The notes beneath the pieces are model-generated. The model was not told the DNA's origin. It saw only the letters and a program-made list of their open reading frames with translations, and searched no databases. From positions 1 through 15,135 of the forward strand of contig WJJU01000318.1 in NCBI GenBank assembly GCA_014729595.1: a stretch of 15,135 bases of DNA, given 5' to 3'. The stretch is from Chitinivibrionales bacterium (GTDB lineage Bacteria > Fibrobacterota > Chitinivibrionia > Chitinivibrionales > WJMI01). The position numbers and the translations under genes were made by a program. Shown here in pieces: positions 12,079 through 15,135 of the stretch (position 1 is its first letter; every line of letters starts with the position of its first letter).

Positions 12079-15000
12079 ATGAAAGGTCTCAAGATACTAA
12101 GAAAGCTGTTCAAGCCCCGAAAAAAAAGCGGGGGCAAAGCGCCGCCTTCATCTCCCGAAATTACCAAGCTGGTCAACAACGCAACCAGCCGTTATCTCTC
12201 CGTCGTGGGTGCGCGTGGATTGTTTAAAAAAAGGGCGCTCTACGAACGACCCTGGTTCCTGGTTTGCGGACCGACCGGCAGCGGAAAGTCGTCGCTCCTG
12301 TCCACGGCCGGAATGGACTCGGCGGCTTCGTATCCCGACGAATCCGACGGATTCGTCGATCAGGAGGGTGTGCAAATACAGTGGCGTTTCGCCGACGGCG
12401 CCGTTTGGATTGATATTGACGGACATTTGGTGACCGAAGAAGGAAGTGCGGAATTCGAATCGCTGGTCGGCGCACTGCATTCGGTGCGTCCGCTTCGGCC
12501 CCTCGACGGTATCGTGATGGTGTGCGCCGCGGGAACGCTGCAGGAGGGTGCTCAAGAAGATGCGAGAGATCTTGCCGTAAAACTGCGTCGTTGCATAGAT
12601 AAAGCCATTACGGTATGGGGCGTGGAGCTTCCCGTGTACCTCGTATTCTCCAAGGCCGACGAAATAGTCGGCTTCAAAGAGATTTTCGGCGATCCTTCCG
12701 GCAAATGGGACGAACGTGTGCTCGGCAGCGCAATGCAGGAGGACAATAGCGCAAAGCTTCCTCGGTTCGCTTTCCTGGAAGAGTTCGGCTTCGTACTCGA
12801 CTCGGTTAAAGACATACAGGTCAAGATGTTGGCGCGGGAAAGGCGTCAAAGTGCGCGAAGGCGAATATGCGAATTCCCCATTCACCTTGAAGCACTTCGT
12901 GAAAGGATGTCCGTCCTGGTGGCAATGCTCTATCGGCCTTCCACTTACGAAGGCAAACCGCGACTCGGAGGGTTCTATTTCACCAGTTGCCCCGCCGACG
13001 ATCAGCAGGTTGCCGAAGAGCCGGAAGAAGAGCAGTCACTCGACATTAGCAACACGGTTTTCAGCCATCCTCTCAATCCAAAGAAACCCCAAACGAAAAA
13101 GTCGAGATCGAAGAAACGGTCTCGTGAGCAGCCTTCGTTCTTTGTCCGGTCGCTCTTTTTAAATGTTTTGCCGGCGGCGCCCCAACCTATTACACGAACC
13201 CAAAAGCATGAACGGCACGAAAAGATGCGTGTCTTCAAGCGAGCGGCCGTCGCGGGCGTATCGGTGGCGGCGGTACTTTGGATTGTATGGGCGATGACTC
13301 TCGGGGTGCAATCGAACGAAAAGCAACTCCGCAAAGACTTGTCGGCTTCGCCTACACTCTCGGCACAGGGAATTAAGCGACTTGCTGTTATAAAGGATCA
13401 TTTCGAACGATACCGTACATACGCGGAGGGGCGCCGAACAATCCCGATGATCGTATCCGGCTACAATGCCGAAAAATCTTACCGGGCGGTGAGGGACGCT
13501 TACTACTCTTCGTTGCGCACCGTGGTCGTCGAACCATGTTCCACCATACTGTGCCGATCGCTCATCAACATGATAAACCTTCCCGACAACAGTCCCGAAA
13601 ACGATTTCGGTGAACTAAAACGAACTTTTCGCGCCTATCTGAGCATTTCGGCCGCGGGGCGAAGCTATGACGAACTGATTGTTGATGAGAGCGGGATCGT
13701 ATCAACGCTGCGCAAGGCGATGCTCAAGGGAGTAATAAGGAAAAGGTCGGTTTCAGAACCGCTCGACTCCGCACTAACCTCGGTTATTACCTCGTATGTC
13801 GCGCTTCTTAAGAAAAACAGTAATCCACCGGTAATTCGTTCGGATAAGCCACTCATTTCGCGCGTGCAGCTCAAGCTTGTCAGCCTTTTCGACGCCGATG
13901 CGGTATATGAGACGGTTCTTGCCAAGTGCCTGCGTGGTGCGGACAAGCTGTTCCTCAAAGATATTGTCGATGAAAGCGGTTCCTTTGCGATGAACACGGA
14001 TGAACCGCTCAGCGGCGCGTTCACGCCGGAGGGTTGGAACGACCAGGTCAGAAATCAAATTCTTGAAGCGAGCAGGCGCTTAGAGACGATCGAGGATTGG
14101 GTAATCGGCAATAACAGAAATCGGATATCCGAGGCGTTTATCGACCCGGAGCATCTTCAAACCGAAATGGTGACTCGTTACCTGGAAGACACTAAATCCG
14201 CTTGGCGCGACTACCTTTCATCGTTGAACACCGAGCAGTTCACGGACATGGAGGACGCCAAGAAAAAGCTGCTCGAACTCAGCGGCGATCGTTCGATCAT
14301 TGCTCTCGTATCGGGGCGGCTGAAAGAGTGGATCGGTCAATTTGAGCCCGATTCCGCCGGAACAATGAAGGAAGCGCTTGCGGGATTCGGCGAGGAAATG
14401 GCATTTGTGGGTGAATTCAATTCAGCACGACTCGGCGAATACCAAAAGCGCCTTGCCGACGTTGCCGAGGGGGTTGAAACGGCCGTTGCGGAAGGATCGA
14501 TAGCCGGAGTATTCAACGGACATAAGGACGATCCTTTGGTCGCCGCCTACGACCATGTCGGCTCGACCATGCTGCCCTCGATGGGCGACCTGGAGAAGGT
14601 CTATTTTCACGACATGCTCATGAATCCTCTTCGACGGACCATAGAGCTGGTGCGGCTGCCGTTGTGTGACGAAATTAATGAGGCATGGCGGGCGGAGGTG
14701 TACGACGTGTTCGCCGGATCCTGCAGCGGACAATATCCGTTTGTTGATGTTGAAACGGAAGCGCTTTACAGTGTTGTCATGTCCTTGTTCGAGCCCCAAA
14801 CCGGGGCGATTTGGAGAACGTACGAAAACTATCTTTCCCCGTACCTTATGGAAAAGCACGGCAAATGGTCACGCAGGAAATTGGCGGGGATGATCCCACT
14901 GGAGGTTTCGCCGGGGCTAACGACCTGCCTTACCCATGCGAAAAGGATAACCGAGGTCTTTTACAAGAGCGATGGAAGCCCGCGTACCTGGAGTATAAGC

Positions 15001-15135
15001 ATCACCCCTCAAACGAGTAATTTGACGAAAGCGCAAATTGTCATGGACAAAACGGCCGGCGACCTTATTGCGAAAAGGGAAATCAGGTTGATGTGGCCGA
15101 TCAGTGGGGGCAAACCGGGTATACGGCTGACGTTC
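12079..15135 (+). CDS. tssM: TssM/IcmF-like type VI secretion membrane-complex protein, 3'-truncated by the window end. At least 1019 aa are encoded in the window.
   Basis: Frame 1 is open from the ATG at 12079, with an in-frame TAG at 12064 just upstream, to the last base of the window. It is absent from the ORF track because no stop occurs. Hallmarks are 'ALYERPWFLVCGPTGSGKSSLL' (P-loop, 12268-12291), 'WRFADGAVWIDIDG', 'PLDGIVMVCAAG', 'LPVYLVFSKAD', 'RLGGFYFTS', a TM helix 'AVAGVSVAAVLWIVWAMTLGV' (about 13240-13310), then a periplasmic region with 'FTPEGWN' and 'GQYPF'. The N-terminal pair of TM helices found in canonical TssM is missing. Confidence 0.85.
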   Translation, partial: MKGLKILRKLFKPRKKSGGKAPPSSPEITKLVNNATSRYLSVVGARGLFKKRALYERPWFLVCGPTGSGKSSLLSTAGMDSAASYPDESDGFVDQEGVQIQWRFADGAVWIDIDGHLVTEEGSAEFESLVGALHSVRPLRPLDGIVMVCAAGTLQEGAQEDARDLAVKLRRCIDKAITVWGVELPVYLVFSKADEIVGFKEIFGDPSGKWDERVLGSAMQEDNSAKLPRFAFLEEFGFVLDSVKDIQVKMLARERRQSARRRICEFPIHLEALRERMSVLVAMLYRPSTYEGKPRLGGFYFTSCPADDQQVAEEPEEEQSLDISNTVFSHPLNPKKPQTKKSRSKKRSREQPSFFVRSLFLNVLPAAPQPITRTQKHERHEKMRVFKRAAVAGVSVAAVLWIVWAMTLGVQSNEKQLRKDLSASPTLSAQGIKRLAVIKDHFERYRTYAEGRRTIPMIVSGYNAEKSYRAVRDAYYSSLRTVVVEPCSTILCRSLINMINLPDNSPENDFGELKRTFRAYLSISAAGRSYDELIVDESGIVSTLRKAMLKGVIRKRSVSEPLDSALTSVITSYVALLKKNSNPPVIRSDKPLISRVQLKLVSLFDADAVYETVLAKCLRGADKLFLKDIVDESGSFAMNTDEPLSGAFTPEGWNDQVRNQILEASRRLETIEDWVIGNNRNRISEAFIDPEHLQTEMVTRYLEDTKSAWRDYLSSLNTEQFTDMEDAKKKLLELSGDRSIIALVSGRLKEWIGQFEPDSAGTMKEALAGFGEEMAFVGEFNSARLGEYQKRLADVAEGVETAVAEGSIAGVFNGHKDDPLVAAYDHVGSTMLPSMGDLEKVYFHDMLMNPLRRTIELVRLPLCDEINEAWRAEVYDVFAGSCSGQYPFVDVETEALYSVVMSLFEPQTGAIWRTYENYLSPYLMEKHGKWSRRKLAGMIPLEVSPGLTTCLTHAKRITEVFYKSDGSPRTWSISITPQTSNLTKAQIVMDKTAGDLIAKREIRLMWPISGGKPGIRLTF

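Follow-up and report, generated by a model that had tools for sequence, protein, structure and literature searches.

The window analysed here (15,135 nucleotides, positions 1-15135) is the entire public contig WJJU01000318.1 of a metagenome-assembled genome (MAG) from Chitinivibrionales (Fibrobacterota, class Chitinivibrionia). Its rightmost gene encodes a TssM/IcmF protein, related to the membrane-complex component of type VI secretion systems (T6SS), that lacks the N-terminal hairpin of two transmembrane (TM) helices. Translation of frame 1 from the ATG at 12079 on the plus strand gave 1019 sense codons up to the contig's final base, an open frame much too long, and with Pfam matches much too strong (E-values as low as 3.5e-43), to be due to chance. 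The product was 100% identical to MBD3315603.1 (P0001), annotated as 'hypothetical protein GF344_07435, partial [Chitinivibrionales bacterium]', and about 85 C-terminal residues are estimated to be missing from orthologues of 1094-1105 aa. Translation of 12001-15135 placed frame-1 stops ahead of the gene at 12022 and 12064 (TAG). Only the residues V-A-H-A lie between the second stop and the ATG, and the GTG at 12067, four codons 5' of the ATG, is the sole earlier start option. The gene is missing from the open reading frame (ORF) list because the listing tool leaves out ORFs running off a source end. A preliminary description of this DNA had proposed a frame of more than 1000 uninterrupted codons behind the TAG, hidden from the ORF track for lack of a stop in the window, starting about 60 aa before the P-loop and carrying GPTGSGKS, VYLVFSKAD, GFYFTS and GQYPF. 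The translation and the ORF list agreed with it on each point, the P-loop beginning 63 residues after the Met. The features of the gene and its upstream border are as follows.

11737-12078, no strand: divergent intergenic region of 342 bp between tssM and the neighbouring gene for an FHA-SLT lytic transglycosylase (stops in all three plus frames)
12064-12066, plus strand: in-frame TAG bounding the tssM ORF, five codons 5' of the ATG (translation)
12079-15135, plus strand: tssM variant, 5' 1019 codons, open at the contig end (translation, Pfam, match to MBD3315603.1)
12079-12153, plus strand: polybasic N-terminus in the hairpin's place, aa 1-25 (10 K/R in the first 30 aa, a clade-wide pattern)
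12154-12693, plus strand: small-GTPase-like G domain, aa ~26-205 (AlphaFold2 (AF2) model, motifs)
12268-12291, plus strand: P-loop GPTGSGKS, aa 64-71
12412-12423, plus strand: DxxG, aa 112-115
12439-13227, plus strand: IcmF-related_N (PF14331), aa 121-383, including the helical cytoplasmic extension (E 3.5e-43, 148 bits)
12649-12660, plus strand: SKAD, aa 191-194
13231-13314, plus strand: sole TM helix, aa 385-412, equivalent to TM3 of classical TssM (Kyte-Doolittle 2.12, AF2 helix, alignment)
13462-14304, plus strand: periplasmic IcmF-related (PF06761), aa 462-742 (E 9.4e-25)
14662-14967, plus strand: IcmF_helical (PF21070), aa 862-963, holding GQYPF (E 4e-8)

The proposed identity as a TssM/IcmF homologue was borne out by profile searches. 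Two of the three families named beforehand, IcmF-related_N and IcmF-related, were matched together with IcmF_helical, and the order of the Pfam domains was that of TssM, with VYLVFSKAD at aa 186-194, GFYFTS at aa 298-303 and GQYPF at aa 884-888. The NCBIfam TssM model TIGR03348 matched the truncated protein with an E-value of 8.5e-93 and 312.1 bits (cutoff 388.15). This alignment started at profile position 92, so that the part of the model holding the hairpin was without a counterpart. The full-length orthologue P0009 scored 291.8 bits against the same model and the hairpin-bearing relative P0010 scored 475.7 bits. A profile built from the clade matched the enteroaggregative Escherichia coli (EAEC) TssM structures 6IXH and 6HS7 in the PDB (E ~3e-22), and its positions 803-1068, which cover the IcmF_helical region, matched residues 822-1083 of 6IXH. 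The C-terminal TssJ-binding domain IcmF_C (PF06744) had a precomputed match in P0005 only, and the full-length orthologues align through this region.

An AF2 model of aa 1-430 built from 82 homologues reached a predicted local distance difference test (pLDDT) of 88.9 and a predicted template modelling score of 0.84; a full-length model from 9 sequences had a pLDDT of 46 and was left out of the fold comparison. The shorter model predicted an alpha/beta G domain, then a helical extension, then one long helix at 375-423. The first ~25 residues had the lowest confidence of the N-terminal part, and a short helix at aa 4-10 was the only regular secondary structure modelled in them. The P-loop and DxxG were kept across the clade; SKAD was kept less strictly, though its Asp was invariant. 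In some hairpin-less TssMs, Walker A has lost its lysine or is missing altogether, examples being CNLSQIKRD in P0044 (locus L015, 10001-13315) and GEKDCGNG in P0029. Nucleotide binding is therefore not universally kept in such variants.

Standard TssM has three TMs, with the cytoplasmic domain between the N-terminal hairpin and TM3 (PMC3213119; PMC6517824). A Kyte-Doolittle scan of the window protein with a 19-residue window revealed one TM-grade segment (aa 385-412, peak 2.12), with nothing above 1.3 elsewhere. This segment has basic residues on its N-terminal side and aligns with TM3 of hairpin-bearing TssMs. No hydrophobic segment was found before aa 385, and no TM hairpin could be encoded upstream, the plus frames of 11737-12078 being interrupted by stops and free of any hydrophobic reading frame. 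A promoter scan of the same intergenic region found no sigma-70-like site, and an Rfam scan returned nothing useful. The orthologues P0002-P0009, from Chitinispirillaceae and other Fibrobacterota metagenome bins, share 36-38% identity with the window protein, are 1094-1105 aa long and likewise have only ~60 residues ahead of the P-loop. Nine Fibrobacterota loci came out of a scan of species-representative genomes, six of which encode a tssM with a short N-terminus and an in-frame stop 2-13 codons 5' of the ATG; the other three (L009-L011) encode proteins of 1196-1198 aa with a strong N-terminal hairpin. In total, orthologues of seven loci from other Fibrobacterota MAGs share the start point of the window gene, each with a stop at this distance. 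In the alignment, the TM1-TM2 block is cleanly excised and all else is colinear. These results indicate that the absence of the hairpin, as the preliminary description had claimed along with a single TM, is genuine: closed upstream frames, together with orthologues that have an equal start and nearby stops, exclude a frameshift, a misassembly or a pseudogene, and conservation in the orthologues ruled out an upstream exon that would restore the hairpin.

In place of the hairpin, the clade shares the pattern M[LK]K[IL]KxxPxPxKK, and most of its members have 7-11 K/R among residues 1-30. An N-terminal amphipathic helix was considered as a conserved anchor and rejected: the window's MKGLKILRKLFK could form one, but the orthologues have prolines there. 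Polybasic character is the only conserved N-terminal trait.

We assessed the spread of hairpin-less TssMs with a HMMER search of 1.84 billion cluster representatives, which gave 5084 homologues at E ≤ 1e-3. Among the best 150 of these, 141 were full length and were surveyed for a TM-grade segment in the first 110 residues; 126 of the 141 had one and 15 had none. A neighbour-joining tree, rough and indicative only, grouped the window protein with P0005, P0009, P0020-P0023, P0029 and P0030 in one monophyletic clade of hairpin-less proteins. Further hairpin-less proteins (P0028 with P0034, P0032 with P0037, P0044, P0096 and P0139) were dispersed among hairpin-bearing ones, which suggests that the hairpin was lost several times independently. 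Hairpin-less tssM genes without upstream room for a hairpin also stand in four clear T6SS clusters, with the following gene orders.

L013: VgrG, FHA-SLT, TssA-B-C-Hcp-E-F-G-TssM
L015: PEGA, TssK, TssL, TssM
L016: TssA-B-C-E-F-G-ClpV-TssM
L098: fully canonical TssJ-K-L-M-A-B-C-Hcp-E-F-G-ClpV

The rarity implied by the preliminary description was therefore overstated, as roughly one in ten of the closest library representatives share this form, and so does IcmF of Legionella. Three TMs were predicted in only 63% of IcmF homologues in an earlier survey, and at least one in 84% (Boyer 2009, PMC2660368). We found no description in the literature of a hairpin-less or single-TM T6SS TssM as such. With Legionella IcmF, the founding member of the family, known to be single-pass, and given the 63% figure, the gain here is incremental: the hairpin-less TssM is a real and conserved variation on the architecture of a well-known protein and not a new kind of system.

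Comparison with known proteins places the variant more closely. Classical TssMs of T6SS-i (SciS/TssM of EAEC, 6IXH and 6HS7; ImpL of Agrobacterium tumefaciens) have the same Pfam domains in the same order, a P-loop GTPase-like cytoplasmic domain, and a TM before the periplasmic helical and beta domains; orthologues of the window protein, moreover, adjoin tssK, tssL, tssA, tssBC and hcp. The window protein differs from them in having no hairpin, in beginning ~63 aa before the P-loop and in its TIGR03348 score. IcmF of Legionella pneumophila, from the type IVB Dot/Icm system, has the same overall layout, with a cytoplasmic Ras/Arf-like domain, a single predicted TM at aa 317-338 and a periplasmic cylinder-forming domain (bioRxiv 10.1101/2023.03.22.533729), and the P-loop region of its profile NF038226 lies ~30 positions from the start. 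However, the window protein scored 55.6 bits against that profile, a weak similarity relative to the equivalog cutoff of 1000; no dot/icm genes were present in the window or related loci, and the orthologues sit in T6SS loci. On the rough tree, the single-pass state would be a secondary loss within T6SS TssMs, unlike Legionella IcmF. The nearest three-TM relatives are the hairpin-bearing TssMs of Chitinivibrionia (P0010-P0012 and P0024; loci L009-L011 and L017), which are 29-33% identical and colinear over the full length and share the RPWFLVCG context of the P-loop. They differ in keeping TM1-TM2, in passing the TIGR03348 cutoff (476 bits) and in having no FHA-SLT neighbour. In these four loci, the three-TM tssM (~9767-13360) immediately follows purD-purE-sua5 and is an orphan: the 10 kb to its left and to its right hold no T6SS gene.

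The gene divergent to tssM in the window encodes a protein in which a long low-complexity linker joins an FHA domain to a single TM (aa 361-385), with an SLT domain at the C-terminus. Such a bitopic protein would have FHA in the cytoplasm and SLT in the periplasm. A search with this protein gave no exact record through which the contig could be extended. Its position, and those of similar genes in other loci, are listed below.

9748-11736, minus strand: FHA-TM-SLT lytic transglycosylase, 662 aa, divergent to tssM (Pfam FHA 7e-13, SLT 9e-25)
L001, 8028-9878: FHA-SLT gene
L013, 839-2281: FHA-SLT gene
L014, 5686-7335: FHA-SLT gene
L030, ~8234-10305: FHA-SLT gene

Both the residues for phosphothreonine binding (GR, SxxH, N) and the catalytic motifs (ES, GMWQF, AYNAG) were invariant in nine homologues. 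Several lineages have the FHA-SLT gene in their T6SS loci, mostly together with a membrane Ser/Thr kinase, and it was also found outside T6SS contexts (L018-L020, L023). Its domains and its recurrence in T6SS loci suggest that FHA-SLT could target peptidoglycan cleavage to the T6SS assembly site in a phospho-dependent manner. No FHA-lytic transglycosylase fusion is among the entries of a 2026 review of T6SS accessory factors (PMC13584744). TagH/Fha1 shares the FHA domain but has no enzyme domain. Like MltE and TagX, FHA-SLT bears a periplasmic cell-wall-cleaving enzyme, here anchored in the inner membrane, whereas MltE is a housekeeping lipoprotein encoded outside T6SS loci and TagX is an L,D-endopeptidase. 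The idea that FHA-SLT compensates for the lost hairpin, suggested by its hairpin-less TssM partners from other subclades in L013 and L014, was rejected: a metagenome scan found L030, a T6SS locus where FHA-SLT accompanies a TssM with a normal hairpin, and the hairpin-less TssMs of L015, L016 and L098 had no FHA-SLT in the fetched DNA (in L016 the contig ends at the cluster's left edge, which bounds the search there). FHA-SLT may be a more promising lead from this window than the tssM variant.

The pairing of FHA-SLT with tssM was kept in every orthologous locus, usually together with a ~900-aa membrane Ser/Thr kinase. In two of the seven orthologous loci (L001 and L002), T6SS core genes lie to the right of tssM, in the order PEGA-domain protein, then TssK-TssL-TssA-TssB-TssC-Hcp-TssE-TssF, while unrelated genes follow in the other five. 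On this pattern, a T6SS locus past the right edge of the window, as the preliminary description predicted, is possible but unproven. The genome of Chitinispirillum alkaliphilum, a cultured relative, has been noted to contain a T6SS (PMC4814513). In the distant Fibrobacterota T6SS loci L001 (14531-15175, minus strand), L002 (13555-14241, minus strand; with a signal-like N-terminus) and L015 (6436-7167, minus strand), the gene beside tssK encodes a PEGA-domain protein that ends in a TM. This protein might be a TssJ substitute or some other accessory component.

We consider it probable that the window gene is the tssM of a T6SS membrane complex, in a lineage-specific hairpin-less form that works as an otherwise ordinary TssM. 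Directly observed are homology, domain order, the single TM, the lack of upstream capacity for a hairpin, the orthologue layout, and the presence of some orthologues in complete T6SS clusters. We infer that the window copy is functional and that the T6SS it serves is encoded outside this contig, either past its end or at a separate site. The protein would open with the short polybasic tail, followed by the cytoplasmic small-GTPase-like domain and its helical extension, which, by analogy with characterised TssMs, would contact TssL and the baseplate. It would cross the membrane once, at aa ~385-412, with the N-terminus inside and the C-terminus outside, a signal-anchor orientation that agrees with the basic residues immediately ahead of aa 385. 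The periplasmic helical and beta domains would build the trans-envelope channel. Anchoring would fall to the single helix and perhaps also to the N-terminus, which, speculatively, may lie with its conserved polybasic, proline-rich stretch against the anionic membrane surface. Because a two-helix hairpin enters and leaves on the same side of the membrane, its deletion keeps the sidedness of the other domains, so the remaining protein could work as a three-TM TssM does.

Several observations weigh against this assignment. No T6SS core gene was visible in the 15-kb window, and the window tssM is itself truncated; both it and P0009 score under the equivalog cutoff of TIGR03348. The call of a single TM in the window protein draws on hydropathy and the predicted AF2 helix. 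In L004-L007 and L012, tssM is detached from the T6SS cluster, and no TssJ (PF12790) was seen in the Fibrobacterota loci fetched. Furthermore, two tssM paralogues, both hairpin-less, occur in the MAG GCA_964390065.1, the first in a kinase/FHA-SLT module (L007, CAYMGX010000064.1) and the second ending the TssA-B-C-E-F-G-ClpV cluster (L016, CAYMGX010000024.1).

The main rival view is that the protein is a TssM paralogue outside T6SS, part of a separate envelope module with the FHA-TM-lytic transglycosylase and, in relatives, the membrane Ser/Thr kinase. The trio of kinase, FHA-SLT and TssM is indeed kept where the T6SS core is absent from the flanks (L004-L007 and L012), the two-paralogue MAG has another tssM at the end of its T6SS cluster, the score stays under the TssM cutoff, and FHA-SLT with the kinase stands in L018 and L019 with no T6SS gene within 10 kb. 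FHA proteins and PpkA-type kinases are, however, classical T6SS regulators, and in L001 and L002 the trio abuts TssK-L-A-B-C-Hcp-E-F with no other tssM in the fetched part of the cluster. The protein also keeps all TssM domains and the nucleotide-binding motifs, and split T6SS loci are common (Boyer 2009, PMC2660368). We therefore judge a non-T6SS module improbable.

A split gene, in which a separate small membrane protein supplies the two N-terminal helices in trans, is much less probable still. TM-bearing neighbours do occur: FHA-SLT has a single TM, and L002 and L003 encode a protein of 363 aa that has two or three. Nevertheless, no small two-TM ORF lies beside tssM in the window, the 363-aa protein is not a conserved feature of the loci, and FHA-SLT, also found with the hairpin-bearing TssM of L030, is not a specific substitute. 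That the hairpin is hidden by a frameshift, a misassembly or a pseudogene is scarcely credible, since, although the evidence comes from a single MAG contig annotated only as a hypothetical partial protein, the three upstream frames are full of stops without a hydrophobic stretch, independent assemblies of seven other loci share the start and the stops just 5' of it, and the 1019-codon frame is intact.

A broader proposal joins the gene to its neighbour, and as a whole we hold this to be rather unlikely: a minimal single-pass TssM would serve the Fibrobacterota T6SS, insertion of the membrane complex through the wall would be licensed by a dedicated phosphothreonine-guided lytic transglycosylase, and the hairpin would be generally dispensable. 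The membrane Ser/Thr kinase would mark the assembly site, the FHA domain would dock there, and the periplasmic enzyme would open the peptidoglycan locally. The trio would then form a portable 'membrane-complex insertion module', possibly without TssJ.

The hairpin-less clade, partly inside complete T6SS clusters, amounts to a natural deletion experiment on the hairpin and implies that it is not essential for assembly of the complex, whose base is still unresolved in the cryo-electron microscopy structure (PMC6517824). In annotations, such proteins go by the name 'hypothetical' or 'N-terminal domain-containing'. Since they also score under the NCBIfam TssM cutoff, surveys that require a called TssM may under-count T6SS in Fibrobacterota.

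Outside the tssM and FHA-SLT genes, the stretch at 3154-5370 has a high AT skew. The putative ORFs at 3520-3927 (minus strand), 4353-4907 (minus strand) and 5014-5370 (plus strand) gave no PADLOC match, and the latter two gave no Pfam match. The genes at 5451-9528 take the position held by the Ser/Thr kinase in the orthologous loci. An encapsulin operon occupies 771-3153 on the plus strand and looks like an anaerobe's oxidative-stress nanocompartment. The assigned genes of this part of the window are listed here.

5451-9528, minus strand: 890-aa AMP-binding/phosphopantetheine-carrier/PlsC-type acyltransferase fusion, then an alpha/beta hydrolase
771-1160, plus strand: 4Fe-4S ferredoxin
1404-1799, plus strand: rubrerythrin/EncFtn-like putative cargo
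1849-2661, plus strand: Linocin_M18 encapsulin shell (E 2e-69)
2758-3153, plus strand: desulfoferrodoxin

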